Source: a virus (lineage: Duplodnaviria > Caudoviricetes). Taken from it: 64,000 bases of DNA. The stretch spans positions 2,574-66,573 of IMG/VR virus record IMGVR_UViG_3300004481_001142. The stretch is one strand, 5' to 3'. Shown piece after piece: positions 39,001-64,000 of the stretch. How positions within the stretch are numbered: position 1 is the stretch's first letter; every line of letters begins with the position of its first letter. The notes under the pieces were generated by a model. It was not told the DNA's origin and searched no databases. It saw only the letters and a program-made list of their open reading frames with translations. The position numbers and the translations under genes were made by a program.

Positions 39001-41725
39001 ATTGATCGAAAGCATTACTTATTTTTTCAATTGCCTGTTGAACATTATTATCTGTAGACAGTCCATTAAAGTGTGTAGTATTTAAAGAAACAGCATAAGC
39101 GGGATGAACTTCGTAAACTTCTCGCAAATCAAGATAATCAACAACTTTAGCCTTAATAGTATTTGTAAAATTATTACTAGTCTGATATATCACTCTCCAT
39201 AAAATCTTAATTTCACTATATGGTACATTACTTAAATCTAAATCATCGAAATTGTCTTGTTTAGCAGCATCTAATGTAGAATACTGACTTTGACCCATTA
39301 TAGCAATTATTGGATCATTAATATCATTTGTCGCAAAAATAAATGTCGATGTATACCAACCGCTAGTAACAGCAGCAACAGGATGATTATCATAACCAAT
39401 TCTGCCTGATCCTCCTGCATTTTCGTACACAGGATATGTTGTAGCTGTCTTCTTCGTCCACACACCGACACTACTTCGATAAAAAACAGGCATGATAGCT
39501 GCGGGACTTAACGTCTGATAATATGGATATGATGTAGCAGAATCAACAATATTTACTTTAATGTCATCATCAATAACAGCTCCTGCACTTACCAATACTT
39601 GAGCATCTGTATCAGCAGTACCGTCACCTATTGTAAATGTTGCATCTAAACCACTATAATAACGAAGACCGTGAGTTTGATCTAAATAAAGACGCGTCTG
39701 ACCGTCCATTATTGTGCTATGACGCTCGTCCACTAAACTTATATGCGTTGCTGCGCCAACACTCCAGTAAACAGATGCAACAGGCGCGTGTATTGTATCA
39801 TCCCAGATTGTTTGACTGCGATTTAATGTCCCAGTTATATCATAATAAAAATACCAAATACCCTCAAGATTATCTATTGTAATAGTATCAGGACTTGCAC
39901 TACTTTTATCAAAAAGTTTGTTATTGACGTAAAAAATAGGTCCTTCAGATCCTATAGGACCTGAAACTGCAAACGTTCTAGCGGGACTTGAATCTGTAAA
40001 TGAAATTTCATATACTGTTGCACTTCTGCTAATAAATCCTGTCGGTGCATGAAGTGCATATTGATTTGTCACATGTTCTACAAGAGAATCATATCCTGCC
40101 GGTGAAATAGCAGGTGAAAATGTTAAATCTGCACCATTAGTAATGTTAAGAAAGATATCACCTCGTTCAATATCAATCGCATGACCACCACCTGAATTAG
40201 TCACTACTATCGCACTACCAGCTGAAGCATTTGTAACCTCAACTGCATTGCCAGCAACACTATCGTCAGCCTTATTTATTACTAATGCCTTACCTGTGTC
40301 TGATTTATTAATTGTGGCAGCATCTGTGCCCGGAGCAGTATTGTTTATAATCAGTTTTCCAACATTATGTTCTGAAGTGTTAATAATTTCAACAGTTCCA
40401 TGAACTGTCAAATTGTTTTCTACTGTGGCATTATAAACATCAAGTTCGCCTTTTCCATTTGACAGATTTAATAATGAATTTGTATATGTACGCTTATCAA
40501 CTATATCTGCGGCATAAATTTCATTTTGGCCCGCAGTACGATTAATTTCAGCTAACTTATAATATCTATGGTAAACATCATTTGCGTCTAATCCATCAGC
40601 AGGAATGTCAACTGTACCCTCGGCTACAAGAATGTCTTGCACTATTCTAAATCTATTAGCAGTTTGTATATCAAGATCTCCGTCTTTTAATGTCACATCT
40701 TGATATTCAGAATCTATATCACAACTAACTTCTGCAAGATATGTGTCTACATAAACAGTATCAACCCGTGTACCTCCTAATGGAGGTGCTAATACAGGTA
40801 TTGTTGTATTTGTATAATCGTCGTCTTCAAGAGAACCAGTATTATTTTGCTGATTATATTCGATATCATTAAAAAGTAAAAGAGCATATCCTTTTACAAC
40901 TAATATAGCAGGCTTGTCAACTCCGTAGTTGATCGTCCAGCTAGCATACGTTCCTGAACCTACTACAGATGTGACATTTATATCTAATGCACCAGTATCA
41001 CGATTGTATGCTGTTATTGTGCCTTCCATATAATTTGATGAATCATATGACACAATAACTCTTTGTGCTCTATAATTATACCATGCTGGAGCTATATCAC
41101 CTTTATTAATGTCCAACGACAATCCAAATTCAACTGTAAACGTCTTACTGCCAGCACCAATTAGCCACGATGTCGTTGATTTTGTAACAGTGTCACTTTT
41201 AACAACAAAATTATTTACATTACTTACAGTACTTTCTTCGATCCTCCATGAGCGGCCCGGGCAAGTTTCATCACAAGTAACATCCCAAACAATATACGTA
41301 CCCGAACCGATAATTGATGTAATATTTGCAACTAATTGACCAGTGCCCGGATTATATGATGTTATTGTTCCTTGCATGTAATTGGACGAATCATGCATTA
41401 TTATAACAGTTTTACTAGCTGAAAAAGCTAATCCTATGCCAATTGTCAATGTCTGAGCGCCTGTTGCAATTGTCAATGATGTAGTCGACGTAGATGACGT
41501 AATGTATGACGTCGCAGTTCTGTCACCGTCAAGTATTCCATCACCGACATTTCTTTCTAAGTACCTTCTTAGAAAATCAAGTTGACGGTAATCAATTTCT
41601 GTTAATTCCTTGTCAAGCACGGGTTTGCCGCGCTGAACAGCCATGACATACCTTTTTTTAGCATTACTTGTAAGGTCGTCAAGAGAGAACGAATAATCGC
41701 CGACGTATGCTGTAGCTGGGTTCAC
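33086..41725 (-). CDS. Giant tail fibre / receptor-binding protein: DUF6519-like anchor, beta-helical shaft and five 7-bladed Asp-box (BNR) beta-propellers
   Basis: GTG start with AAGGAG RBS; QRGKPVLDKELTE and RVDTVYVDTY...QTANRFRI anchor motifs; 35 MSSDG-type blades with SxDYGxTW Asp boxes. Confidence 0.88.
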   Translation of the reverse strand: MNPATAYVGDYSFSLDDLTSNAKKRYVMAVQRGKPVLDKELTEIDYRQLDFLRRYLERNVGDGILDGDRTATSYITSSTSTTSLTIATGAQTLTIGIGLAFSASKTVIIMHDSSNYMQGTITSYNPGTGQLVANITSIIGSGTYIVWDVTCDETCPGRSWRIEESTVSNVNNFVVKSDTVTKSTTSWLIGAGSKTFTVEFGLSLDINKGDIAPAWYNYRAQRVIVSYDSSNYMEGTITAYNRDTGALDINVTSVVGSGTYASWTINYGVDKPAILVVKGYALLLFNDIEYNQQNNTGSLEDDDYTNTTIPVLAPPLGGTRVDTVYVDTYLAEVSCDIDSEYQDVTLKDGDLDIQTANRFRIVQDILVAEGTVDIPADGLDANDVYHRYYKLAEINRTAGQNEIYAADIVDKRTYTNSLLNLSNGKGELDVYNATVENNLTVHGTVEIINTSEHNVGKLIINNTAPGTDAATINKSDTGKALVINKADDSVAGNAVEVTNASAGSAIVVTNSGGGHAIDIERGDIFLNITNGADLTFSPAISPAGYDSLVEHVTNQYALHAPTGFISRSATVYEISFTDSSPARTFAVSGPIGSEGPIFYVNNKLFDKSSASPDTITIDNLEGIWYFYYDITGTLNRSQTIWDDTIHAPVASVYWSVGAATHISLVDERHSTIMDGQTRLYLDQTHGLRYYSGLDATFTIGDGTADTDAQVLVSAGAVIDDDIKVNIVDSATSYPYYQTLSPAAIMPVFYRSSVGVWTKKTATTYPVYENAGGSGRIGYDNHPVAAVTSGWYTSTFIFATNDINDPIIAIMGQSQYSTLDAAKQDNFDDLDLSNVPYSEIKILWRVIYQTSNNFTNTIKAKVVDYLDLREVYEVHPAYAVSLNTTHFNGLSTDNNVQQAIEKISNAFDQLEGGAYFGKVKVAENQLYVNNVGSSWIQRASSKNWADAAASSDGRYQTAVVAGAGYIYTSSDYGITWTVRDSSRDWINITMSSDGKIQTAAVSGGYIYTSSNYGASWIQRASVNSWCGLSMSSDGKIQAAIVGIGYIYTSSDYGVTWTQTTSAAQNWTGIAISSDGRIQTATISNIAVSYIYTSDDYGLTWTARDSSRLWSCVAMSSDGRIQTACVLGGQIYVSFDYGMTWTAKGSSLSWSDVAISSNGQIQVAFVAGPTGYIYVSQDYGTTWQQRATLQAWSALAMSSDGKVLIAGVSSGYLYVSYADSDINGSVVISEFSDDKKRSLLSVDQMQLSQLEGDAYFGRVGLTENQWYVDNIGNIWTARATSLNWQSVAMSSNGKYQTAVVGSEKIYTSSDYGATWTARDSNRDWRDVAMSNDGKIQTAVVNSGTIYVSYDYGLTWTTKGSSASWRAVAMSSDGRIQTTVADSDTIYVSSDYGMTWASKESSRAWIDIAMSSDGKIQTAIMSTSGHYYNSYDYGTTWTQGAAAGALSSIVMSSDGKIQLVVAPARLYTSYNYGVTWTGRDTGAWANATISSNGRIQAAISSSGNVYVSIDYGVTWTAKGPSAAWTGIAMSSDGRVLTATVGSAGKIYVSYAKSSINGEVAISDLTDNNKRSLLSVDQMQLSELEGGAYFGHVGITENQWFLDDFGLTWLRANTSDHQDIAVSSNGKYLTAIVYGGFIHISSNYGITWTQVATSLNWLGIAMSNDGKIQTAIVRNGQIWTSTDYGATWIARDSARDWQCVRVSSDGRIQVTVTATTDYMYISYDYGVTWTSFNSTGNRYGLAISSDAKIQTIVTSTYIYVSLDYGVTWTQRGSSQSWIKVAMSSDGKHQTAVAASANIYTSADYGTIWTARDSSRNWVNVAMSSDGRIQAAVDYPGYTYVSEDYGVTWTQCGASLNNNGIAMSSDGKIIATVSWTGTPLGGIYISYASANIYGAVNISDSRAATDTVTVTKSGTGDAFTVNKTNDGDGIQVTKSSGTGYAIDVIDGDVNVGSGVVTVTNTDASADAVTITKSNTGQGIVVNKTNDGHGIQVTKSSGTGYAIDVIDGDVNVASGVVTVANADVADAVTITKSNTGRAIVVNKSGAGYAIDVVTGDVDIASGTETITKLATTYKQSLLSVDQMQLSQLEGGAYFGRVGITENQLDLATSVFGSLMWTSRDSAYYWQGIAMSSDGRIQTAVATVSGYIFTSTDYGATWTQRGSAGSWYGVAMSADGKIQTAARGSSQIYTSFDYGVTWTGRDSSRSWNAIAMSADGKIQTAGLYGGDIYTSTDYGVTWTVRSAASTYWTSIAMSSDGKMQTAVALGDYIYTSSDYGVTWTWRDSTRQWCDVAMSSDGRIQTAAANSGDKIYISTDYGATWTGKDSNRNWIAVAMSSSGRLQIAATRVIPPTADTTAQLYASVDYGNTWKAIGGGAHSWYDVAMSSDGKMLSAVGFNDTIYTSYNISQINSSLSIPKRSILDNESLFSTDQMQLSQLEGGAHFGHVGITENQWYVSHFDTAVWTARDSNRNWMDIAMSSNGKYQSAVAGGVSNDYIYISSDYGVTWTQVGTQAYWVNIAMSSDGKYQSATELLTSAMYRSSNYGTTWSLIISGGSLWGIAMSGDGRIQTIGYTGFTPINVSFDYGVTWVNSNSPTGDFRSIAMSSDGRIQTACAFVGYIYTSVDYGITWIQRDSSRRWTSVAMSSDGKIQTATVNNSGYIYTSTDYGVTWTQRDSAREWTSVAMSSDGKTQIAGTFPGAAGYIYISTDYGASWTVISATTTAGGWRGIAISSDGKIRAACDYGNKIYTSYADSSTIGNVNIAGFLAASTQVGPYKSVFDAVDTAPTLTAAQVLGGIVIGTPTVVRNYTLPTAASLLALIPNAVVGTSIKLTVKNLSGINGIAIVASASMTNGGVASDFSVGASNNATYDVVFTNVTPSTEAAVLYRN
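33490..39003 (-). repeat. Five tandem propeller modules of 7 blades each, each preceded by a conserved LEGGAYFG..ENQ linker
   Basis: Linkers near 38954-39003, 37931-38028, 36937-37028, 35433-35525 and 34391-34480; seven [MIVA]S[SNAG][DNS]G-type motifs counted per module. Confidence 0.9.
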
Positions 41726-47040: not shown

Positions 47041-49848
47041 TTAAAATTCTATATTTTCAAACGTAATCGTTCGTCCTTTCGGATCATCATAATCCGGAGC
47101 TTTATCAGTCCGCAATCTATCATGCTCAGTAATCTCACCGTTTTGTATGAACTTACCCTGATCTTCAGTATAATGTTCGAATGGCGGTCGCAAACCAACT
47201 CGTTGAGCATACTTAAACAAATTCAAAGACTGAACAAATTCATATCGTATGTCTGTCGTATCGACGTGCTCTATTGGAAAATGCTGTTGTACTGCCACGC
47301 CTCTAACTTCAGGATATCTGACAGGACCAACTGCGTATATCATCATTTTAGACCTATGTAATAAAAAGTCACGCTGAGTTAAAGTCGGCGTAATATTTGT
47401 CCATGTATTCTCTACAGCATCTAATTTCATTCCTCGATCTGTCATATTAATTTTCTGTTCTACTTCACATGGCGCAATTTTCATTTCATAAGGACCCTCA
47501 TACCCTCCAACAAAACCTGTGCCCCAACACTTCTTGCAAGGACCAATCTGTGGCTGTTTATGCGTTCTTTCATTTTGCACATAACATGTGCATTTTTGTC
47601 CAGTCGTCTTACGAATAAACAACATCACTCTTTCACCTGCTTGATCTAACAACCATGCATTTCTGCGTATAGCTTCAATATACATATAGTCGAGCTTATC
47701 AGGTTCGACTGTAGCAGATGCGCACCATTCAAGTCTAGTCTCACTACCGTCACTTAAGACGCAAGTAACTTTATAAAACGGTGACCTGGCTAAATTCATC
47801 CTAAATGAATTGATGATATACTTATATGTAACGGTCACAATCGACTCAGTTGTCGGTATAATCGGTTCAATCCATCGCATTAACACGTCATCATGTTTTC
47901 TTTCAGTATCTAAAATGATTACACCTTTTATGCCGTCAACAGATTTTACAAAAGCCTTTTTACCATCAACTAATACTTCTACATCATCTGTATTGTCAGT
48001 ATATATATTATATTCTCTATTTTCAACATTGTCATTAACAATTGGTGTATGTTGTACTTGTATGCAGTATTGAGCATTAGGATCAGTTATTAATGGCAAG
48101 TAAGCTTGACCTGATGATAATGTGAAATCTGCAAATCTGACAGTTACAACAGTATTAGAACTTTTAGCATAATATTTAACTTGCAAATCAGATTTTGAAA
48201 AGCTTAAATATGATTCCATTAATATCCAATTAATGCCATCATAATAAAATGTCGTGACGTCAGATCCTGATCTGCTAATCATAAATTTGCCACTTAAATC
48301 TGTAGTACCAACATGTCGTTCACTAATCACTTGAGAATTAACAACTAATTGACTCACATATTCATCAAATGATTCATGCCGTATTCTTGAAATTTTAATA
48401 TGAGTAAAATCATCATAAGCTACTATAAAAGCTGCTTCTGATATGTAAAGAGCATCAGTTACAGGCCACACTAATAGTTCATAACTTGATTCAATATTAA
48501 AATCATTTTTAAGTCTAAATTTTGATTGAAATGTTGCTTCACGATTGTTACCGTAAACATCAACAAAATTTAAACCGCCTGATTGATTGAATATCCTATC
48601 AGTATCAATCAATTCCCATTGATTAGCATTAACAATTTGACCTTCAAAATTTGTTGACGCATCTACTGGCGATTTAAATCTAAATTGATCTGACACATCT
48701 TCTTGCACTACAATACGATTAATCCATTTATCTCGATAAAATGTAGTAGTGACTATTTGCTGATTTATTCTTAAAAATGTGTGACTTTCTCTTGTATATA
48801 CTTGATCAGTCGTTATTATTTCATGTGATGTTATATTTTTAAGTATATCACGCGGTCCAACTTGAGAACGATAAACATTATAACCTATAATTCCAGATTC
48901 AATTGGCATCATATCGTCCCAACAAACATCCAAAGTATTCTTAATATAAGGAATTGACACAAATACATTCCTTACTACAACATTATTTTCTTTTTGTTGT
49001 ATGCTGTATGTAGCAACTTTCAACGCTTCAACATTATTAAACTGATCAACTGCAAAAAATCTCAACGCATTAATTCCTGTTTGCAAATTAACTACAACAG
49101 GCGACGTATCTTTATTTTGATAACTAGTGACTGTAGGATTGGCACCGTTTAATGACCAATAAATCGTTGCAGGTTTATTTGATGTTAATGTAACAGACGA
49201 TAGAATATCATACGTACCTTCTACTACGCTAGGAATGGTTATAGGCGCAGTTGTATCGCTCGTTATAGCAGTAAATCTATAAACTTCTATGTAATATGAG
49301 CTTTTATTTCCATCTTCATCAATACCAAAAAACTTTAATGTTGTAGTCGTAGCAATATGAACCGGCGTAGAATATAAAAAAGAACTTGTGTCAGGCATCG
49401 AGCCGTCAATGGTATAATAAACATTTGTATTTGGTTTGCTACTTATTAGCGACACATCCTGCGCAGATGCATACAATTTACCTTTTGGATTTGCAATAAC
49501 AGCAGGCGAAACTGTATCATCAACAATAATTGTAAAAGAATAATCATCTTTATATTCAATATCATTGCTGTCTTTAACACTAATCGCCACTGGTATGATA
49601 GCGCCTCTATTAAAGATAGCAGTGTGCGTTATATAGACATCATATCCTCTGGGCGCATCAAGTATTGAACCTGAAAAATTTATCTGAAATAACCCATTAA
49701 CTATGGCATTGCTGCCATTAATTATCACATTAATGCTATTTTTATTAGCAATAGATCCTTCATTAGCCCAAATTTCAAAATAAATTGGGGTTGTTCTTTG
49801 AATGTCAATAGCACCTGTTACTGGTGCATGTCCGTCAAAATATAACAT
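47041..49848 (-). CDS. Head-closure / neck protein with long N-terminal Ig/Fn3/lectin-like decoration
   Basis: C-terminal GERVMLFIRKTTGQKCTC...QP..GPCKKCWGTGFVGGY (CxC...CxxC neck domain as in SPO1/Twort-like phages); N-terminal YYTIDGSMP Fn3-associated repeats. Confidence 0.7.
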   Translation of the reverse strand: MLYFDGHAPVTGAIDIQRTTPIYFEIWANEGSIANKNSINVIINGSNAIVNGLFQINFSGSILDAPRGYDVYITHTAIFNRGAIIPVAISVKDSNDIEYKDDYSFTIIVDDTVSPAVIANPKGKLYASAQDVSLISSKPNTNVYYTIDGSMPDTSSFLYSTPVHIATTTTLKFFGIDEDGNKSSYYIEVYRFTAITSDTTAPITIPSVVEGTYDILSSVTLTSNKPATIYWSLNGANPTVTSYQNKDTSPVVVNLQTGINALRFFAVDQFNNVEALKVATYSIQQKENNVVVRNVFVSIPYIKNTLDVCWDDMMPIESGIIGYNVYRSQVGPRDILKNITSHEIITTDQVYTRESHTFLRINQQIVTTTFYRDKWINRIVVQEDVSDQFRFKSPVDASTNFEGQIVNANQWELIDTDRIFNQSGGLNFVDVYGNNREATFQSKFRLKNDFNIESSYELLVWPVTDALYISEAAFIVAYDDFTHIKISRIRHESFDEYVSQLVVNSQVISERHVGTTDLSGKFMISRSGSDVTTFYYDGINWILMESYLSFSKSDLQVKYYAKSSNTVVTVRFADFTLSSGQAYLPLITDPNAQYCIQVQHTPIVNDNVENREYNIYTDNTDDVEVLVDGKKAFVKSVDGIKGVIILDTERKHDDVLMRWIEPIIPTTESIVTVTYKYIINSFRMNLARSPFYKVTCVLSDGSETRLEWCASATVEPDKLDYMYIEAIRRNAWLLDQAGERVMLFIRKTTGQKCTCYVQNERTHKQPQIGPCKKCWGTGFVGGYEGPYEMKIAPCEVEQKINMTDRGMKLDAVENTWTNITPTLTQRDFLLHRSKMMIYAVGPVRYPEVRGVAVQQHFPIEHVDTTDIRYEFVQSLNLFKYAQRVGLRPPFEHYTEDQGKFIQNGEITEHDRLRTDKAPDYDDPKGRTITFENIEF

Positions 49849-50245
49849 TATCTGACCTCAAAATATTGTTTATAATGGCTTCAGTAGGATCTAAAAATTT
49901 CATTTGTAAAAAATCTCTTATTTGCAACCAATTTACTACTTTGCATCTATCATCAACACAATAATCGAAATATATTTTTTTTGACGTCTGAAAATCTAAA
50001 AACGGCGCATTTTCATTTACTGAATGTAATTTAATAGCATTTCTTTCAAGAAATCGCAAAGCATTCTGCAATGGCTGCCCGCAACGGCATGTCCATAAAA
50101 TCGTATAAAAATTTTCATACATCCATGCTATAGTTTCTTTTGCATAAGGAAGGAGGACGAACTCCTCCAATAGGTGTGCGTCCTCCTCATACTTCACAAT
50201 CGTTCCGTCAAAATCAACTGCAATAATTTTGCATCTCTCAACCAT
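49835..50245 (-). CDS. HAD-superfamily hydrolase (small capless type)
   Basis: IIAVDFDGTIV motif I, LWTCR motif II, KKIYFDYCVDDR motifs III/IV. Confidence 0.85.
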   Translation of the reverse strand: MVERCKIIAVDFDGTIVKYEEDAHLLEEFVLLPYAKETIAWMYENFYTILWTCRCGQPLQNALRFLERNAIKLHSVNENAPFLDFQTSKKIYFDYCVDDRCKVVNWLQIRDFLQMKFLDPTEAIINNILRSDNVIF

Positions 50246-50775
50246 TATGCATTCTTTCCTCTAACCGACTTCCATGTTTCGTGTATTCCAGTCGCACCGA
50301 AACCAGCAGTCAAACCAGCTATTATACTAGTAACTACAGGCTGTCCAAGCGACGCACTTGCAGCAAAGCCTGACAAGATACCAATTGCTAATGCAATATA
50401 CGGCTTTAACGGCTTCACTTTAGGCGTGTCAAATGCTTTTGCTAATGCCGGAAATTTCAAAACTGATACCAGCAATTTAATTAATGCTGCAATCAACAGA
50501 ATCAATGTAACTGCACCTGTCTTCATGCCCTTGACAGCATTAACAACTGCACTAGCATTGTTCATTAATGTGTCAGCAGTTATTGATGAATCAGGAATTT
50601 TAACATTAACTTCTGCTTTTGCAGCAGCATCCTTGACTGTCGCAACAGCAGTCGCAACAACTGCCTTCACTACCGGCTGAACAGTAGTTACAGCTGGCTT
50701 TACGATAGCAACCGAATCAGCTGACACCGCAACAGCAAATACAACAACCATCAAACAAGCAAGCAAACGTCTCAT
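50245..50775 (-). CDS. Holin-like membrane protein with N-terminal signal-peptide-like extension
   Basis: MRRLLACLMVVVFAVAVSA signal-like start; 2-3 hydrophobic helices; GLTAGFGATGIHE..K holin-type ending; AAGGAGG RBS. Confidence 0.55.
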   Translation of the reverse strand: MRRLLACLMVVVFAVAVSADSVAIVKPAVTTVQPVVKAVVATAVATVKDAAAKAEVNVKIPDSSITADTLMNNASAVVNAVKGMKTGAVTLILLIAALIKLLVSVLKFPALAKAFDTPKVKPLKPYIALAIGILSGFAASASLGQPVVTSIIAGLTAGFGATGIHETWKSVRGKNA

Positions 50776-51191
50776 AGCACTACCTCCTTTTGGTGTAGTT
50801 TGTTAATTGCATCATACTCGTCCTTTAACTGAGTTATGACTCTTAAATACTTCTTAAGATCTGTTAGATTGTCAAATGACTTGAAATTCTTACTAATGTT
50901 TGTCAAAAAATCTTTTTCATTTTTTGTCAAATCACCGCCTTTATAAAAAATAACATATCGAGATAATAATAAACCTGTACATTCGTCATATATGTTTTCT
51001 GTATCCCAATGCTTATCGTATGGATCAATAAAATGAATCTTATCAAATTCTTTTTTTATTTCTTCACGCCACTTATTATTAGTACAGTCACCACCCAAAA
51101 ATATCGACAGCTCGCCCTTTGCTCGTTTAACATCTTTAAGCACACTAGCTATTTTAAAAACTTCAGTCTGTATTTTTATTAAATGCTTCAT
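50772..51191 (-). CDS. Leader-bearing nucleoside 2-deoxyribosyltransferase-like protein (Nuc_deoxyri_tr2-type)
   Basis: IFLGGDC...WRE...IHFIDPY...W...YDEC.GL...YVIFY pattern after the 15-aa shared leader. Confidence 0.65.
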   Translation of the reverse strand: MKHLIKIQTEVFKIASVLKDVKRAKGELSIFLGGDCTNNKWREEIKKEFDKIHFIDPYDKHWDTENIYDECTGLLLSRYVIFYKGGDLTKNEKDFLTNISKNFKSFDNLTDLKKYLRVITQLKDEYDAINKLHQKEVVL

Positions 51192-51967
51192 GGATGTTTA
51201 GGATTCCCCTTTTCTACTATCAGCTTTTCTACAAATTCTTTAGCATCTTTAACTGTTAGAAAATGGACACTGTCACCATAACTTCCTGGAGTATAACGAC
51301 TTACATTAACCAAATGTCCTTGCTTGTTTATATAACTCCAATATACCCAGAACATTTTTTTATCACCCATTGACACGTCTCTTATTTTCCATATTACATC
51401 TCCGCTCTGACCAACAAAACCACCAGTGGCAGTCTTTTTCCATTCTATATCACTATCAATTTTATCATCAAACACATTCACTTCTGATGCATATCCTGTA
51501 TAATCTTCACCCATATCGTTTGTAATATCAAAAATCACACCATTACAACCCATTCGTTTTAATTTTTCTTCATTTTTTTCAGTCCCAAAACCAGACTTTT
51601 GATTATATAATACTAAATCCACTTTTCGTTTAGTTATTTTACCCTCAGAAAACATTTTAGCAACAGCAAGTTCAGGCGTCCATGATTGCCCCCTTAAGAC
51701 GCCTGTAATAGATTCATTAGGCGAATGACCACGAAAAATAAAACCTTTCAATCTTAAAATATCTGGCAAATCATCTAACCCATTTTCTTTTGTTAATTTG
51801 CCGTCAATAACTTTCACATCATTATTGCTATCAGATTGCTTTGCTGTCAATCTTTTCTTACTTTTAGGATGCTTTTTTAAATATATCCTTTGCTCATCTA
51901 CTGTTAAATCATCCCATTTTCGAGCACATTTTAAAAATTCAGCCTGAATCACTGCTAAATGTTTCAT
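51188..51967 (-). CDS. Leader-bearing putative ADP-ribosyltransferase-fold protein
   Basis: Start reassigned to 51967 (ATGA overlap, begins at leader); IFRGH, GQSWTPELAVAKMFS and ASEVNVF match the R-S-E ART pattern. Confidence 0.55.
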   Translation of the reverse strand: MKHLAVIQAEFLKCARKWDDLTVDEQRIYLKKHPKSKKRLTAKQSDSNNDVKVIDGKLTKENGLDDLPDILRLKGFIFRGHSPNESITGVLRGQSWTPELAVAKMFSEGKITKRKVDLVLYNQKSGFGTEKNEEKLKRMGCNGVIFDITNDMGEDYTGYASEVNVFDDKIDSDIEWKKTATGGFVGQSGDVIWKIRDVSMGDKKMFWVYWSYINKQGHLVNVSRYTPGSYGDSVHFLTVKDAKEFVEKLIVEKGNPKHP

Positions 51968-52437
51968 ACAACTTTCCAATGAGACGGCACTTCAACATCC
52001 TCATCTTTACCGTGCTCATATTCTGCATAAATACCACCATCATCTACTATGTCAACATCCCAACCATTAGACAATGAATATCTTTTTTTCTCTTGTGGCT
52101 TATCTAAATTATCAGGATAAAAACAATCAAACATTTGTTTTGATATTTCAGTCTCTGCTTCTTGTTGCAACGGTAAATTTTTAACGCCCAAACTGTATGC
52201 AGGCTCTTTACCGTATTCTTGCTTCATTCTAATTCTAGAATAAGCAATTGATTTGTCTTTTACATCATCACGAACTTCTCTTAACATGCCTTGCTTAATA
52301 ATCGTCGGCTGCACGTCTTTAATTTCAGGCGGCGCTTCTGACAATTCAACTCTCTTTTCACGTTCTTTATGAACTTCACCACTCATATCATCTGCGAATC
52401 TTAAAAACTCTGTCTGAATTTTAGCTAGATGTTTCAT
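51964..52437 (-). CDS. Leader-bearing CYTH (triphosphate tunnel metalloenzyme) domain protein
   Basis: EREKR, IKQGML, SRIRMK, LGVK, EAETEIS, EKKRY, WDVDI, YAEYE and P..W occur in CYTH order. Confidence 0.7.
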   Translation of the reverse strand: MKHLAKIQTEFLRFADDMSGEVHKEREKRVELSEAPPEIKDVQPTIIKQGMLREVRDDVKDKSIAYSRIRMKQEYGKEPAYSLGVKNLPLQQEAETEISKQMFDCFYPDNLDKPQEKKRYSLSNGWDVDIVDDGGIYAEYEHGKDEDVEVPSHWKVV

Positions 52438-52718
52438 CTTTCATGCCTCAAAAAAGATGTTATTCTTGTTCGTTCCTCTTCTAATTCTTTTCGACCCTCA
52501 TCATCTTGGTCAAAATAAACCCAGCCTCTGTCGGGCGTTAAAATGCTCGACTGACCTAATGTGTGCCGTTCAGTACCAATTGTTTCATGCCTTTGAATAG
52601 AATGTCTACTCATATCTGCTTTTGGATGTTCTTTACGATATTCATCATAAGCACGTTGTGACGGAAAAACAACAGCAAATTTTAAAAACTCAGATTGAAT
52701 TGTAGCTAAATACTTCAT
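52434..52718 (-). CDS. Leader-bearing small hypothetical protein with YRKEHPK motif
   Basis: MKYLATIQSEFLKFA leader; 94 aa; starts 3 nt after the adaptor stop. Confidence 0.75.
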   Translation of the reverse strand: MKYLATIQSEFLKFAVVFPSQRAYDEYRKEHPKADMSRHSIQRHETIGTERHTLGQSSILTPDRGWVYFDQDDEGRKELEEERTRITSFLRHER

Positions 52719-55571: not shown

Positions 55572-57485
55572 TTATTTGCAAGCTTCTATAGCTAAAAATA
55601 AACCAGCAGGCTGCTCTAATGCACGACGAGATGTCGGCGCAATTCTTGCGCATTGTCTAAACCCTGCCCATTGTAATTCTATCATTAATTGTGTTTCAGT
55701 AAATAAAAACTTATGAGTTTGACCTACAACCCATGGAAGTTCAAAGAAATTATTATACAAATTAAGTCTAGAGACCTCATCTGACTCTACAAAAGCTTTA
55801 CACGTCATTAAAAAATCATGCGTCTCGATTATTAATTTGCCATCAGGCTTTAACACGCGACACCATTCTTTCAACACCTTTTGTCCCTCATGAAAATCAA
55901 AATGTTCTATGATGTAAAATGCTCTTATAGTGTCTACAGTATTGTCATCATACGGAATTTTTCTAACATCAAAAATTGTATCAACTTTTGCTGCTTGCGA
56001 CGGATAAAGATCACAATTAATATAAGCTTGCTGATAATCTTCTCCGCAAGCAATATTTAAGTTAATTTGTTGGAGACTAAATCCATGTTTCGTTCGTAAT
56101 TTATCTAATTTTTCATTTGACTTTGCAGCTGCGCCACTTGCGCTGACTAGATATTTAAATGTGATATCATCTATAAATGTGAATTTGCATCCTTTTTTAT
56201 ATAATCTATACCACATGTCCCAGTCTTCTAAACCATCAAGATTGCTATCAAATTCTTCAGCACCGTTTTCAAAACATTGTGATTTAACAATCATTCCAGA
56301 TATCCAGATAAAATTGTTATGCTCTAGCTGCTTACCTATAAATTGATGAGGTGCAACTATTCCAAATGGAAACACCTGAATTTCTCCATCGTGACAATAC
56401 GGCCGACTATAACAACCATCACTGTCATTTCCTAAAAGAGTCACATTATCCAAATGATTATAATGCCATTCATCATCAGCATCAAGAAATGCTATCCAAA
56501 AAGGACCATCAGTTGTTTTAAATGCTTCTTTTATTAATGCATTTCTTGCATGACTTTGACCTTCTCGCTTATTAGATTTTAAAAATACTATTCTAATGTC
56601 ATGATTATTCAAAATATAATCATCAACTATCTGTTGTGATTTATCAGTACTGCCGTCATTGTAAATATAATGAGTTATTTGTGTCCCAATCTGCACATTC
56701 TGATTTTTAACAGATTCAATAGCATTTATAATCTGATTCTCATTATTATATAAAGGCGTTATCACAGCAACTTTCATATATTTGACTTTATATCTCTCAA
56801 ACACTGTTTTCATATTTTTGTTAAACGTCTCTTGCCAATTAGGCAAATCATTAACAGTCAATTCTCCAGTATGATAAATGGGAAATTCACCTATCATTTT
56901 ATCACCTACATTTTTAATTTCTTTATTTTGCGGAACTTGAATTATTTTAAATCCTTTTTGCATCGCCCTAATACAGTAATCTACATCCTCTCCGCTACCA
57001 GATAAAAAACTTTCATCTAAACAACCGATCGAGTCTAATACTTTTCTTGAAATCATCACACAGAAAAATATTAGAAAATAATTACTCATTTCAGCCACAT
57101 ATTGTTTGATTGGTCCTGTTATCCCGCAATTACTATCTGTCAAAAACGGTTCTAACAATATATTTATCCATACATTTTTAATAGAATTGTCAAGTAACAT
57201 GGTGTCATTGTTAAGTAGAATAATATAGTCACCTGTAGCAACTGCCAGCGCTTTATTAACTGCTTGTGAAAAACCTAACGCTTGTGGATAAGAAAGAAGT
57301 ATAAAAGGAGTACCAAGAGAGAGCACGTAATCTTCTGTCTTGTCTGTGCAACCATTAGCAACAACTATTACTTCAATTGTATAATCTTTAAAATCTGTAT
57401 TGCGAACAATGCTGTCACAACATAATTTAAGACCATCATTAAGATGATTATACGTAGGAATGATGATTGATAATTTAATTTGCAT
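55572..57485 (-). CDS. Tandem GT2-GT2 glycosyltransferase fused to a class I SAM methyltransferase
   Basis: SIIIPTYN...ANGCTD...LLNND; VITPLYN...NDGSTD...ARN...FLDADD; LNIACG...INCD...IIEHF...EWCRVLKPDGKL. Confidence 0.9.
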   Translation of the reverse strand: MQIKLSIIIPTYNHLNDGLKLCCDSIVRNTDFKDYTIEVIVVANGCTDKTEDYVLSLGTPFILLSYPQALGFSQAVNKALAVATGDYIILLNNDTMLLDNSIKNVWINILLEPFLTDSNCGITGPIKQYVAEMSNYFLIFFCVMISRKVLDSIGCLDESFLSGSGEDVDYCIRAMQKGFKIIQVPQNKEIKNVGDKMIGEFPIYHTGELTVNDLPNWQETFNKNMKTVFERYKVKYMKVAVITPLYNNENQIINAIESVKNQNVQIGTQITHYIYNDGSTDKSQQIVDDYILNNHDIRIVFLKSNKREGQSHARNALIKEAFKTTDGPFWIAFLDADDEWHYNHLDNVTLLGNDSDGCYSRPYCHDGEIQVFPFGIVAPHQFIGKQLEHNNFIWISGMIVKSQCFENGAEEFDSNLDGLEDWDMWYRLYKKGCKFTFIDDITFKYLVSASGAAAKSNEKLDKLRTKHGFSLQQINLNIACGEDYQQAYINCDLYPSQAAKVDTIFDVRKIPYDDNTVDTIRAFYIIEHFDFHEGQKVLKEWCRVLKPDGKLIIETHDFLMTCKAFVESDEVSRLNLYNNFFELPWVVGQTHKFLFTETQLMIELQWAGFRQCARIAPTSRRALEQPAGLFLAIEACK

Positions 57486-57552: not shown

Positions 57553-59334
57553 TTAGAAATTACAACCAAGTTCAAAAAATCCATGTCTCGCAAGCTTACT
57601 ATAAAAAGGACTAACTGATACTATATCTGTCGCCCCCGCTGTAGCAACAGTATGAGTCCATCCATTATATACTGTTCCTTGCGTATCAACTTTTCTTGTA
57701 CTTGCAGCTCCTTGCATAGTGGCACCACCTGCAACATCCCATCTTGAAATTTGTCCAGCATCAGGTGTTAAAGACGAATTATTACCCTGTGTCATTACAT
57801 CTATTACCCAATCTCCATCCTTAACAGTATCAAAAGCTGTTTGGAGATATGTGCCGCTTGTTGTAGAATTTCTGGCAAAACTAAAAGGTACAATTTGTTC
57901 CACATTTGCCAGAGATATACCTCCAGCAACAATGCCTCTATCAAGTGCGGCGTCTATCGTAACTACAATGTCATACGTTCCTGCCACAGGTAAATTCGCT
58001 TCAGGCATATACCATATCGTTGCTAATACATCTACTGCTGTGCCTGCCCAACGGTAATCAAGGTAAGTGCAAGCCACTCCATTATAGGTTACATTTGTTA
58101 TAGTTCTTTCTACCGTATTTTCCAAAGAAATAAGCACAAAAAGCATCCTATTAGTTCCGCCACCTATTGTATGCGCCCATGTTAAGGAGCTGACGGCTCC
58201 TCCATTGGAATTTGATGAACTGTCAAAAACTATTCCTGGATAAGTAGGTTGATTCCATAAGTGAGAAAAAACGTGACTTCCTACCACTAAAACGGGTGAA
58301 GACTTATCTGTTGCTGTATAGTCACCTATTTGTCCATATCCATTGTACCCCCAAACCCATACCTGACCATTTGATTTCAAACCGTGCACAGTTGACCGTT
58401 CTATTGCAACCTCAACAAATGTATGACCCCCCACAACAAGAACAGGAGAAGATTTACTCACAATGGTTTGGTCACCTAGCTGTCCTACACTATTATTACC
58501 CCAACACCAAATTTCGCCATTATCCTTAAGTCCAGCACATAAAGCGTATCCTGCATATATCTGAGTAAATGAATGACTACCAACCACCAGAACAGGAGAA
58601 GAGCGACTTGTACGAGAATTATCTCCTAATTGTCCGATAGTATTATCACCCCATGCCCAAACCTCTCCGTTACTTTTTAATCCGATGGTAAATCGCAAAC
58701 CACAATAAATTTGAATGAAAGAATGATTGCCTGCCACAAAAACAGGTGAAGAGCGACTTGTACGAGATTGGTCTCCTAACTGCCCGTAATCATTCCAACC
58801 CCAGCAAAATGCTCGTCCTTCAGCATCGAGTGCAGCGCAATGAGATTGTCCAGCAGTTCCACCTGCTCCAACTGACATTGCAACAAAGAAATATCCGCCT
58901 ACCACAAGAACAGGAGAAGATTTGCTCGCAGTAGTTTGATCACCTAGTTGACCTCCATTGTTGAGCCCCCACGTCCATAGTTGTCCGTTATCCTTCAAGG
59001 CAGCACACATATATTCACCCATTATTACATGAATGAACGAATGACTTCCTACTACAAGAACAGGAGAAGACCTACTCGTTGTAGATTGATCACCTAACTG
59101 GCCTGCTATGTTATATCCCCACGTCCACACTTGTCCATTAGATTTTAAACCTGCGCTATTAGCAAGAGTGATACCGCCGCCTATAGAAATCTTTGTAAAA
59201 ACATGACTTCCTACAACGAGTATAGGTGAAGATTTGCTAGCTACTGTTTGGTCACCTAATTGACCGGCAGTATTACAACCCCATGACCAAGGGACTCCCG
59301 TTGGCTTTATTGCTAGGGCATGATAAGTATTCAT
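57553..59334 (-). CDS. RCC1-repeat beta-propeller protein with C-terminal beta-sandwich (putative fibre head / adhesin)
   Basis: Seven W.WG.N..GQLGD....S.SSPVLVVG.H.F repeats (~51 aa, ~153 bp period); TAATG overlap with upstream gene. Confidence 0.88.
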   Translation of the reverse strand: MNTYHALAIKPTGVPWSWGCNTAGQLGDQTVASKSSPILVVGSHVFTKISIGGGITLANSAGLKSNGQVWTWGYNIAGQLGDQSTTSRSSPVLVVGSHSFIHVIMGEYMCAALKDNGQLWTWGLNNGGQLGDQTTASKSSPVLVVGGYFFVAMSVGAGGTAGQSHCAALDAEGRAFCWGWNDYGQLGDQSRTSRSSPVFVAGNHSFIQIYCGLRFTIGLKSNGEVWAWGDNTIGQLGDNSRTSRSSPVLVVGSHSFTQIYAGYALCAGLKDNGEIWCWGNNSVGQLGDQTIVSKSSPVLVVGGHTFVEVAIERSTVHGLKSNGQVWVWGYNGYGQIGDYTATDKSSPVLVVGSHVFSHLWNQPTYPGIVFDSSSNSNGGAVSSLTWAHTIGGGTNRMLFVLISLENTVERTITNVTYNGVACTYLDYRWAGTAVDVLATIWYMPEANLPVAGTYDIVVTIDAALDRGIVAGGISLANVEQIVPFSFARNSTTSGTYLQTAFDTVKDGDWVIDVMTQGNNSSLTPDAGQISRWDVAGGATMQGAASTRKVDTQGTVYNGWTHTVATAGATDIVSVSPFYSKLARHGFFELGCNF

Positions 59335-61681: not shown

Positions 61682-64000
61682 TTATACCGCGAAAGCCTTT
61701 GAAATCGAAGCGTAGTAATTTGTACCATTATAATAAATAACAACTACATCGATAGAATTAGCTGCAGTACTAAGCACTAACCCACTTGCTTTTCCACCCG
61801 GCGCGTACACTGTTGCCGGCCATGTCGCAACCCATCCTCCCGTCCCGTCTTGGATACATCTTAACACAAAGTTGCCCGGACCTAGAGGTGCTGTAAATGT
61901 GAAAGTACAAGCTGCTGTCATAGTAACAGATTGTTTCTGACCGTTATTCCAATCTATTGTTTTTGTACCAGTACTATTTCCATTGCTATATTCTGCATCA
62001 TAAGTTGCAGTATGCAACGAGCTCATCTTATTTGAATCATCAAGAATAACTCCACTGTTTTGAATTACTTTGCCTGTTTCCAAGTGAAAACGAACTACAG
62101 CATTATCTGTTGACGAACCCGGACCTGTTACATCTCCGCCTCCGCCACCGCCAGAATAGCCAGAAATTCCAGAGCCACTATAACCTGAGATACCACTGTA
62201 ACCTGAAATTCCGCTATATCCGCTATAACCAGACCTACCACTATAACCTGAAATTCCGCTGTAACCTGAAATTCCACTGTAACCTGAAATTCCACTGTAA
62301 CCGCTGTAACCGCTGTAACCTGAAACTCCACTATAACCGCTGTAACCTGAAATTCCGCTGTAACCTGAAATTCCGCTGTAACCTGAAATTCCACTGTAAC
62401 CGCTGTAACCGCTATAACCTGAAACTCCGCTGTAACCTGAAATGCCCGAATAACCACTATAGCCAGATATTCCCGAATATCCGCTATACCCTGAAATTCC
62501 TGAATACCCAGAATAACCACTTATTCCAGAATATCCAGACATTCCAGAATATCCACTATAGCCAGAAACACCACTATAACCAGAAATGCCTGAATATCCA
62601 CTATAGCCCGAATAGCCCGAAATACCGCTATAACCACTGTAGCCAGAAATTCCGCTGTAACCACTTATACCACTATAACCACTGTAGCCACTTACACCAC
62701 TATAACCTGAAATTCCACTATAACCACTGTAACCACTTATTCCACTATAACCGCTATAACCGCTATAACCTGAAATGCCTGAGTATCCTGACATTCCAGA
62801 ATATCCGCTCACTCCACTATAACCACTCACGCCTAACACAGCAAATGTTGTATCAACATAAGACATTCTTGCTGTATCTGCATACGTCCATGTAACTGTT
62901 CTTGCAGTTCCAGTACTATTAAACGCAAGAACTCTAACAACTATTCTATCAGTAGCTAATATCGATATATCAGAATTTATTGTCCATTCTGTTAAAAACT
63001 TTGTAACTGTCCCAGGTATACTTGACGGACCATTTGTCGTTGTAAAAAGAACAGTTGTCGTAAGACCGTCAGCTGATCTTGAACATACTTCATATTGAGC
63101 ACTACATGATGCATTTGTCGCAGAGAACCAACCAGTAAATTTCCATATACCAGCAGGAAGTAAACTATCTCCAGGAACTCCAACTACAGTCACATAGTTA
63201 TCAAACGGGATGCCTGATGAATCAGCATTCGTAACACCAACTAATGTTTCAGTATATCCACCGACAATACTTACAGGCAGTCGAGTAAGTTTTTCCGTGT
63301 CTATTGTTAATGTGGCATTAATTACATTATTTTCCTGTGTCAATGTACTTGTAACACATAATGTAATAGTAAGAGCAACAACTGACCTTATTTCAACAGT
63401 TTTATTATTTAATGATGTATTTGATATTGCAATTTTTTGATGAGCTACCCAACCGTCAATAACAAAACTTCCAGAAGCTCTTGTGATAGTTGCCGGAACA
63501 GCATTATTAAAAGTTAATGTGTCAGTTGTTGTCGGAATAGTAGTATCGCCACTAGTATGATCGTAATACAATCTCATGTACGACGACGTACCTGGAGAAC
63601 CACTATATCCTGAATAACCACTATACCCAGAAACGCCACTATAGCCGCTGTAGCCCGAAATACCACTGTAACCGCTATAGCCTGAAATACCGCTGTAACC
63701 ACTATAGCCCGAAACACCACTGTAACCACTATATCCTGAAATGCCACTCCCGCTATATCCTGAAACGCCTGAATAGCCGCTATAACCACTTTCACCACTA
63801 TATCCTGAATAGCCACTGTAACCGCTATAACCTGAAATACCACTGTAACCGCTATAACCTGAAATTCCGCTGTAACCGCTATAACCTGAAATTCCGCTGT
63901 AACCGCTATAACCTGAAATACCGCTATAACCACTATAGCCCGAAACACCACTCCCGCTATATCCCGAAATGCCTGAATAGCCGCTATAACCACTTTCACC
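61682..64000 (-). CDS. Collagen-like (Gly-X-Ser) tail fibre protein, 5'-partial
   Basis: The Met at 63577 is internal: the same frame stays open to 64000 as SGY repeats (...GYSGSPGTSSYMRLYY...). C-terminal GDVTGP.SSTDNAVVRF and IDWNNGQKQ...DGTGG...WP...LST.AN.ID.V...Y fibre motifs. Confidence 0.85.
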   Translation of the reverse strand, partial: GESGYSGYSGISGYSGSGVSGYSGYSGISGYSGYSGISGYSGYSGISGYSGYSGISGYSGYSGYSGYSGESGYSGYSGVSGYSGSGISGYSGYSGVSGYSGYSGISGYSGYSGISGYSGYSGVSGYSGYSGYSGSPGTSSYMRLYYDHTSGDTTIPTTTDTLTFNNAVPATITRASGSFVIDGWVAHQKIAISNTSLNNKTVEIRSVVALTITLCVTSTLTQENNVINATLTIDTEKLTRLPVSIVGGYTETLVGVTNADSSGIPFDNYVTVVGVPGDSLLPAGIWKFTGWFSATNASCSAQYEVCSRSADGLTTTVLFTTTNGPSSIPGTVTKFLTEWTINSDISILATDRIVVRVLAFNSTGTARTVTWTYADTARMSYVDTTFAVLGVSGYSGVSGYSGMSGYSGISGYSGYSGYSGISGYSGYSGISGYSGVSGYSGYSGISGYSGISGYSGYSGISGYSGYSGYSGISGYSGVSGYSGYSGMSGYSGISGYSGYSGISGYSGYSGISGYSGYSGISGYSGVSGYSGYSGYSGISGYSGISGYSGISGYSGYSGVSGYSGYSGYSGISGYSGISGYSGISGYSGRSGYSGYSGISGYSGISGYSGSGISGYSGGGGGGDVTGPGSSTDNAVVRFHLETGKVIQNSGVILDDSNKMSSLHTATYDAEYSNGNSTGTKTIDWNNGQKQSVTMTAACTFTFTAPLGPGNFVLRCIQDGTGGWVATWPATVYAPGGKASGLVLSTAANSIDVVVIYYNGTNYYASISKAFAV
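62140..62833 (-). repeat. Gly-[Tyr/Ile/Val]-Ser triplet repeat, block 2 (roughly 75 triplets)
   Basis: 9-bp-period coding repeat, e.g. ccactataa/cctgaaatt on the plus strand. Confidence 0.95.
63599..64000 (-). repeat. Gly-[Tyr/Ile/Val]-Ser triplet repeat, block 1 (continues beyond the window)
   Basis: Same 9-bp period; includes a duplicated GESGYSGYSG..GYSGSG unit near 63730-63796 and 63935-64000. Confidence 0.95.

Follow-up and report, generated by a model that had tools for sequence, protein, structure and literature searches.

What does a small gene that shares its first residues with three tandem neighbours encode, and to what use might a phage put the product? The gene lies in a 64,000-nucleotide stretch of viral DNA (positions 2,574 to 66,573 of the IMG/VR record IMGVR_UViG_3300004481_001142; hereafter, the window), all of it minus-strand phage DNA with 36% G+C. 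The parent record spans 66.6 kb and has a CheckV completeness of 11%. Since a syntenic relative, the 416-kb contig L001, is rated 77% complete, the genome size of the lineage can be put at ~0.5 Mb: the source is an uncultured huge phage with a genome of roughly half a megabase. A sequence-only reading of the locus had proposed a CYTH triphosphate-tunnel (TTM) enzyme behind a shared leader peptide, a proposal that fold, profile and residue evidence uphold. The gene and its parts are as follows.

51964..52437 (-): open reading frame (ORF) assigned to the CYTH/TTM family; ATG start, 157 amino acids plus stop
52393..52437 (-): N-terminal leader of this ORF, residues 1-15, common to four tandem genes
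51967..52374 (-): predicted CYTH catalytic core, residues 22-157; eight main β strands in the model, pLDDT >90; VIA-aligned model range 19-157

The ATG of the CYTH gene overlaps the stop codon of the gene upstream (ATGA), and its own stop codon in turn overlaps the start codon of the gene that follows, which places it within a translationally coupled run of four genes. All nine motifs quoted in the sequence-only reading were located in the 157-residue translation, in the order given there: EREKR (residues 25-29), IKQGML (47-52), SRIRMK (67-72), YSLGVK (81-86), EAETEIS (93-99), QEKKRY (115-120), WDVDI (126-130), YAEYE (137-141) and VPSHW (150-154). The protein has 64 metagenomic homologues, 50-74% identical to it and encoded on contigs of up to 416 kb; the 416-kb relative carries one CYTH gene. 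Among 45 of the homologues, the invariant columns are H23, E25, E27, R29, L32, P36, I47, Q49, Y66, R68, R70, Y81, G84, K86, E93, E95, F103, Q115, K117, R119, W126, D129, A138, E139, E141 and P151. As 64 homologues exist and the quoted residues are their invariant ones, the motif pattern goes far beyond chance.

An AlphaFold2 model built from the 45-homologue alignment reached a pLDDT of 91.8, with values >90 from residue 21 onward. Its secondary structure (DSSP) comprises an N-terminal helix (residues 2-16), a short strand (22-24) and a barrel of eight main β strands (27-32, 45-57, 62-73, 80-87, 92-97, 112-121, 126-131 and 136-141). The eight-stranded tunnel expected from sequence was hence what the model returned, a predicted β-barrel with CYTH topology. 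CYTH/TTM proteins occupied all seven top VIA matches in the PDB (Z 9.4-11.3), namely 2gfg (Z 11.3; root-mean-square deviation (rmsd) 2.7 Å over 129 residues), NeuTTM (3typ; Z 10.0), 8h92, 2een, 2dc4, YgiF (5a61) and CyaB (2fjt; Z 9.4). Mediator Med18/20, RNA triphosphatases and VTC polymerases followed at lower Z. NeuTTM (NE1496; PDB 2FBL/3TYP) is the specific inorganic triphosphatase of Nitrosomonas europaea. Foldseek returned NE1496 at E 6.8e-6 and ~25 CYTH entries at a probability of 1.00, and the best matches among the predicted viral structures of BFVD were proteins already named CYTH in phages (top TM 0.74, rmsd 2.6 Å).

Family profiles gave no direct recognition. The CYTH protein had no match in Pfam, PHROGs, NCBIfam or PADLOC scans, a Pfam scan of the 45 close homologues returned no CYTH match, and tblastn detected nothing like the protein in 50,697 deposited phage genomes. 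Even a PF01928 search of the whole record at E<=10 returned nothing, leaving the protein itself undetected. We built a profile of the 45 close homologues (A1), which matched 82 proteins at E<=1e-3 among 1.84 billion representatives, and a widened profile of 53 sequences (52 profile matches plus the query). The close-family profile alone reaches no PDB sequence; only the widened profile does, matching NeuTTM at E 1e-32. Thirteen of the 53 aligned sequences matched PF01928 independently (best 1.9e-9), and four carried a CHAD domain, as YgiF-like CYTH proteins typically do. Thirteen proteins that begin with the canonical E-I-E-R-K-F were aligned separately (A8), and this alignment matches NeuTTM at 1.8e-44. 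Profile-profile comparison, another check proposed in the sequence-only reading, linked A1 to this NeuTTM-type alignment with a probability of 99.5% (hhalign, E 7.4e-23, 128 columns).

The residues shared across these alignments are those of the tunnel. E25, E27, R68, K86, E93, K117, R119, D129, E139 and E141 never vary across the 53 sequences, R70 is nearly invariant and E95 is present in 46. The ExExK signature takes the form E25-x-E27-x-R29, with Arg for Lys, in all 45 close homologues; it aligns to E4-x-E6-x-K8 of NeuTTM, and remoter relatives show R or K at the last position. Likewise, R39/R41 of NeuTTM correspond to R68/R70, K52 to K86, the mid ExE to E93/E95, K85/R87 to K117/R119 and the C-terminal ExE to E139/E141. 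The conserved charged residues are spaced i, i+2 (i+4) along the predicted strands, and in the alignments and model they appear to map one-to-one onto the tunnel residues of NeuTTM. Since fold, profile and invariant catalytic residues agree, despite the Pfam miss, it is well supported that the ORF encodes a small and very divergent CYTH/TTM protein of the NeuTTM branch, in a family previously unrecognised. Membership rests on transitive profile evidence and the predicted fold; the missing direct recognition by Pfam is a point against it, although a profile can miss true members.

CYTH enzymes employ a two-metal mechanism in which one invariant Glu completes the substrate-metal site, three other Glu hold a water-activating metal and basic residues bind the triphosphate (Martinez et al., PMC4641920). 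All mechanism residues of this template are present in the phage protein. We propose a phosphohydrolase that uses two metals (Mg/Mn): the substrate-metal complex would be held by E139, E25, E27, E93 and E141 would be available for the second, water-activating metal site, and R29, R68, R70, K86, K117 and R119 would grip the triphosphate. For class IV cyclases, three requirements have been published (Vogt et al., PMC8233210, section 10): HFxxxxExExK, an RxR pair whose first Arg has given way to a small residue, and a C-terminal ExE whose second Glu has become Ala. These signatures are absent: S19-G20 stands instead of H-F, and R68 and E141 are present and invariant. Because all of these positions fail the cyclase signatures, the protein is very probably a hydrolase and not a cyclase. 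Among the CYTH activities that the sequence-only reading had listed, triphosphate hydrolysis is thus the predicted one, and adenylate cyclase can be dropped on the three published determinants.

Which triphosphate the enzyme would hydrolyse may be read from the tunnel entrance. A Trp or Tyr two residues before RxR marks thiamine triphosphatases (ThTPases), where it stacks against the thiazole ring; other clusters have a small residue there (PMC8233210). The corresponding motif, Y66-x-R68-x-R70, is invariant in the close family. Tyr-28 of the NeuTTM dyad (Tyr-28/Lys-52, PMC3440374) has its counterpart in M51, which is variable, the Arg conserved ahead of the mid ExE (R65 in A8) falls on the variable position 91, and the AlphaFold2 model ends shortly after its last strand with no C-terminal plug helix, NeuTTM being ~20 residues longer in the alignment. 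Given the YxRxR motif, the missing dyad Tyr, the lost Arg, the change of Lys-8 to Arg and the absence of a plug helix, the entrance would suit a ring-bearing or polymer-attached triphosphate rather than bare inorganic triphosphate (PPPi). This pattern hints at, but does not prove, a tunnel made to receive a nucleotide-like or polymer-attached substrate.

One competing proposal is a specific inorganic tri- or short-chain polyphosphatase like NeuTTM or YgiF, which would remove PPPi (for example, the product of a dNTP triphosphohydrolase) or short polyphosphate without acting directly on nucleotides. None of the basic and acidic tunnel residues has been lost, and NeuTTM, the nearest characterised relative, is a highly specific inorganic triphosphatase, as is YgiF (PMC3440374); bare PPPi for this reason stays a strong candidate substrate. 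The replaced dyad Tyr and lost Arg, the invariant aromatic at the ThTPase stacking position and the model without a plug helix speak against it, and recurrent fusion to nucleoside-deoxyribosyltransferase-like (NDT-like) and 2H nucleotide enzymes, described below, would be hard to explain for a PPPi scavenger. On balance, we consider this proposal unlikely, if a serious one.

The genes around the CYTH gene bear on its pathway. Five neighbours were delineated, the first of them upstream and the others downstream.

52434..52718 (-): leader-bearing 94-amino-acid protein, translationally coupled upstream of CYTH; a homologue lies directly upstream of a CYTH-NDT fusion in relative L003
51188..51967 (-): leader-bearing 259-amino-acid protein with an extended basic N-terminal module, between the CYTH and NDT-like genes
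50772..51191 (-): leader-bearing NDT-like protein, 139 amino acids; partial PF15891 match, E 3.9e-5
50245..50775 (-): 176-amino-acid membrane protein with weak holin-family similarity (phrog_1129/1299, E 7e-6 to 2e-5)
49835..50245 (-): 136-amino-acid capless HAD-type phosphatase (BT0820-like), the final enzyme in the block; DxDxT at residues 11-15; NF046079 E 3.5e-15, below the curated cut-off, and phrog_1238 E 2.6e-24

For the NDT-like protein, an AlphaFold2 model (pLDDT 78) had 2'-deoxyribosyltransferases as its best VIA matches (7o62, Z 9.7; 6qai, Z 9.6; 7m5h, Z 9.0), followed by YtoQ, MilB, Rcl, LOG and TIR domains; Foldseek found YtoQ and 4mcj. The 259-residue neighbour had no family match in Pfam, PHROG or NCBIfam, and its ESM Atlas scores (<=0.83) were uninformative. 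A gene similar in size to the membrane-protein gene occupies the same place in relatives, with matching order in L043 (sequences not compared). The HAD phosphatase gene lies two genes past the NDT-like gene both in the window and in L043, encoding 136 amino acids in each, and order and size also match in L048 (sequences not compared); a gene for a 935-residue fibre-like protein comes after it.

Linkage between CYTH and NDT-like genes recurs. In eight of ten readable contexts, the CYTH gene adjoins, or is fused to, an NDT-like (PF15891) gene. The latter is the second gene downstream of CYTH in the window, with one gene between, and directly adjoins CYTH in L043 and L048; in L046 it lies two genes away from a CYTH gene whose product is only 31% identical to that of the window. 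The NDT-like part is C-terminal to CYTH in three fusions (P0008, P0019 and P0042), and a fourth protein (P0065; L047:135-1529 (+), 464 amino acids) combines NDT-like, CYTH and, at its C-terminus, 2H phosphoesterase domains. This 2H domain matches PF13563 at E 3.3e-10 and retains both H-x-T motifs; its match to Acb1 is sub-threshold (5.6e-4, 20 bits). Since the fusions occur in both orders, CYTH and NDT-like proteins appear to share a pathway, to which the HAD phosphatase possibly contributes a third nucleotide-processing step. Our best reading is that CYTH, NDT-like and 2H or HAD neighbours form a nucleotide-demolition module, serving either counter-defence or pool clearing. That the CYTH enzyme acts on a nucleotide-type substrate together with the NDT-like enzyme we hold to be an evenly balanced question.

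Pool clearing can also be framed as a purely metabolic role, in which the CYTH enzyme would work with the NDT-like protein and the HAD phosphatase to clear a canonical (deoxy)nucleoside triphosphate from the host pool, for modified-DNA replication or host starvation. Jumbo-phage CYTH and MazG triphosphatases have been proposed to degrade endogenous NTPs in this manner (Iyer et al. 2021, PMC7824862). In dZ phages, moreover, DatZ, a dATP triphosphohydrolase, occurs alongside a dA-depleting NDT (10.1101/2025.10.22.683976), and the HAD phosphatase of the conserved block has a precedent in T5 Dmp, a HAD-type deoxynucleoside monophosphate phosphatase. The surroundings of the CYTH gene are virion and tail-fibre genes, not replication genes, however, and the 2H fusion better fits the cleavage of phosphodiester or cyclic linkages. 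Supported by analogy only, a metabolic role without counter-defence seems improbable to about the same degree as the inorganic triphosphatase.

A tunnel open at both ends could alternatively thread, and strip off, the 5'-triphosphate of host or phage transcripts or of linear oligoadenylate-type signals, making the protein an RNA or oligonucleotide 5'-triphosphatase whose 2H partner cuts the linkages. The lack of a predicted C-terminal helix would allow this, Cet1-type and viral RNA triphosphatases are structural matches at Z 6-7, and 2H phosphoesterases handle 2',3'-cyclic and 2'-5' linkages. Sequence, however, places the protein in the CYTH rather than the Cet1 branch, no capping or RNA-ligase genes were seen nearby and the NDT-like partner would go unexplained, making such an activity distinctly improbable. 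A class IV (CyaB-type) adenylate or nucleotidyl cyclase, making a cyclic nucleotide in the infected cell, shares the fold (CyaB is among the top matches) and the name under which many CYTH proteins are annotated, but with all three published signatures failing—S19-G20 for H-F, R68 kept, and E141 kept instead of Ala—it can practically be set aside.

Regarding the wider surroundings, the CYTH block lies among tail-fibre and giant structural-looking genes. An RCC1-repeat protein of 593 amino acids (57553-59334 (-)) and a collagen-like tail-fibre protein (61682-63577 (-)) mark a virion/fibre module. Giant ORFs encode 2879 (33086-41725 (-)), 1914 (8296-14040 (-)) and 1246 amino acids (2516-6256 (-)), the latter two with no PHROG match, and most large ORFs of the window are unrecognisable by phage family profiles. 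Between structural-looking genes, 55572-57485 (-) encodes a 637-residue protein with two glycosyltransferase family-2-like regions and a C-terminal S-adenosylmethionine-methyltransferase-like region, of which the 416-kb relative has a 1019-residue version. About 4 kb upstream of its CYTH gene, the same relative encodes a complete DnaJ-type co-chaperone (L001:5334-6320 (+)) that has the J domain, the zinc finger and the C-terminal domain.

What, then, is the leader? Its consensus, M-K-H-L-A-x-I-Q-x-E-F-L-K-x-A, spans 10-15 residues and starts the four tandem genes of the window (50772-52718 (-)). These genes are alike only in residues 1-15, where synonymous DNA positions differ. Paralogy of the four was rejected: similarity ends at residue 15, and the two modelled cargos adopt a β-barrel and a flavodoxin-like α/β fold, respectively. 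A degenerate DNA pattern for the leader retrieved 14 stretches in IMG/VR. With two mismatches allowed, the leader pattern marked at least 25 gene starts in the 416-kb relative versus none in a reversed control; these are spread over the genome as singles and small clusters. Fetched loci of relatives (L003, L005, L008, L010-L013 and L015-L041) yielded 53 distinct leader-bearing ORFs.

Across 54 leader starts, M1 and E10 are invariant and K2, H3, I7, Q8 and F11 almost so. Information content is 1.6-2.0 bits at first and second codon positions versus 0.5-1.2 bits at most third positions, a comparison that is indicative only, the set having been chosen by amino-acid pattern. Upstream of the 54 starts, no conservation was seen besides a weak purine-rich patch. 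The low-information third positions and unconserved upstream DNA make it unlikely that the leader is an element acting at the RNA level, for instance an operator or a signal for translation. In most members, the leader is followed by a basic module of ~30 residues with W-D-D-L-S and H-P-K-S-K-R; the CYTH gene has the short form only. Cargo proteins fall into at least six unrelated Pfam families—including two M17 aminopeptidases, a topoisomerase IB, an FtsK-like ATPase, a rhodanese and the NDT-like protein—in addition to CYTH, which was left out of the scan, and to many proteins without a Pfam match.

Natural variants locate the boundary of this leader. About 29 of the 64 CYTH homologues carry it, and the N-terminus of most others is ~7 residues shorter. 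In CYTH-NDT fusions, the NDT part starts exactly at its own residue 11. In a further protein (P0006; L048:1211-1960 (+)), CYTH is fused to a domain of ~85 amino acids that elsewhere is a free-standing, leader-bearing gene (L012:207-536 (+); 51% identity), and the domain joins from residue 25, just past the leader of the other gene. From the leaderless homologues and the two kinds of junction, the leader boundary is set at residue 10: residues 1-10, ending in the invariant E10, are a separable unit. The P0006 junction suggests that leader-bearing cargo genes have been shuffled or fused at the leader.

The closest known parallel, a loose one, is the capsid-targeting sequence (CTS) of phage T4, a 10-residue N-terminal peptide that is common to unrelated internal proteins, is enough by itself for packaging and is cut off after Glu-10 by the prohead protease. 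CTS-bearing internal proteins of T4 counter host restriction. As in T4 IPI, IPII and IPIII, a short N-terminal peptide with an invariant Glu at position 10 is found on unrelated, tandem-encoded proteins. The CTS of IPII and IPIII (NC_000866) and the phage leader also both read M-K ... Q-(x)-E-F-(I/L), a likeness of few residues and too short for statistics. Unlike its T4 counterpart, the phage leader is found on at least 25 genes per genome, large enzymes included, and most bear the further basic module of ~30 residues. By analogy with T4, delivery of the leader-bearing proteins in the virion is a tentative proposal that falls somewhat short of an even chance. Alternatively, the leader may dock its proteins to some other assembly or compartment, or act as a shared degron.

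Taken together, the account we favour is as follows. The substrate of the hydrolase would be a ring-bearing, nucleotide-type triphosphate, and the CYTH enzyme would catalyse one step in a phage module that, early in infection, breaks down a nucleotide or nucleotide-derived signal. The leader, within the first 10-15 residues, would send its proteins to a common destination; the leading candidate is the virion, into which they would be packaged before being cleaved after E10, as in the T4 CTS. This account grows out of the observed fold, family, conserved catalytic set, gene linkage and leader spread; from these we infer the substrate class, the purpose of the pathway and the meaning of the leader. 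As a whole, we judge it slightly favoured. The sequence-only reading had gone on to suggest a virion-delivered enzyme that blunts nucleotide-signalling defences or resets the host nucleotide pool; virion delivery combined with interference with nucleotide signalling by the CYTH protein appears plausible, with indirect support from the recurring linkage or fusion to NDT-like proteins, the one 2H fusion and the CTS-like traits of the leader. A more far-reaching version, in which the leader is a virion-targeting propeptide system on a proteome scale and CYTH, NDT-like and sometimes 2H proteins are injected as a toolkit which, at the very onset of infection, eliminates an immune signal made of a triphosphate-bearing nucleotide, or the precursor of that signal, we hold to be rather unlikely.

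The kinship with specific inorganic triphosphatases weighs against this account, as do several further observations. Remoter relatives have D or E at the position of Y66, and the argument built on this residue borrows a rule derived from ThTPases. Linkage to the NDT-like gene is not obligatory: the gene is absent from the whole 416-kb relative, where the 143-residue product of the gene following CYTH is not NDT-like, and none lies nearby in L045. The 2H fusion is a single sequence on a 3.5-kb contig. As for the leader, 35 of the 64 CYTH homologues are without it, and FtsK, topoisomerase IB and M17 aminopeptidase would be unusual capsid contents. Neither a T4-type prohead protease (gp21, PF03420) nor a gp23 capsid protein (PF07068) was found in the 416-kb relative (77% complete) or the record of the window (11% complete), a search that would miss divergent proteases.

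CYTH enzymes are ancient and widespread. To our knowledge, their occurrence in jumbo phages had been noted only in passing. Here, a compact and well-modelled CYTH protein with genomic partners and an unusual entrance (YxRxR, no plug helix) allows a concrete hypothesis on substrate class. We know of no CYTH enzyme shown to counter a defence system; if the injected-toolkit version is true, this would be the first anti-defence enzyme of the family. Should the protein be an ordinary inorganic triphosphatase with a lineage-specific N-terminus, the finding would amount to no more than an improved annotation for a family of hypothetical proteins. Of greater importance, perhaps, is the leader. Should it turn out to signal packaging, the proteins injected by an uncultured huge-phage lineage could be listed from sequence alone, and the peptide would be a natural cargo-loading tag. 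Phage CYTH proteins as such were already known; the present family is a divergent one on the NeuTTM branch, and the proteome-wide leader is the more unusual feature.

How does the protein compare with known systems? NeuTTM has the same predicted fold, a similar size, a profile link and equivalent tunnel residues. It differs in sequence (19-22% identity in structural alignments), in having Lys-8 where the phage protein has Arg, and in its cellular context; the phage family adds the N-terminal helix and leader as well as the invariant H23, Y66, Y81 and W126. The mammalian 25-kDa ThTPase shares the aromatic residue two before RxR and both Glu of the C-terminal ExE, but its structural match is weaker (3bhd, Z 6.1) and there is no sequence-level link. 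The YxRxR motif alone does not make the phage protein a ThTPase; we used this one motif only to predict an organic substrate. Annotated phage CYTH proteins (such as UniProt A0A8D9PE24 and those of Ralstonia phages RSL2/RSF1/RP12 and Aeromonas phage D3) have the CYTH fold, the best BFVD match being 24% identical. The present family is missed by PF01928 and PHROGs, bears the leader and is linked or fused to NDT-like genes.

Finally, the functional neighbourhood of the CYTH protein recalls phage enzymes that act against nucleotide signals. Counter-nucleotide phosphodiesterases, including 2H enzymes, have been catalogued alongside the jumbo-phage triphosphatases (Iyer et al. 2021, PMC7824862), and T5 Dmp blocks Kongming signalling. 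The folds and chemistry of Dmp and of the anti-CBASS 2H enzyme Acb1 are unlike those of CYTH, and the Acb1 match in the three-domain fusion is below the Pfam cut-off. The likeness is that these are small phage phosphoesterases acting on nucleotides, as the CYTH protein may be, and that the CYTH family has a 2H fusion in one relative and a HAD phosphatase in its block.

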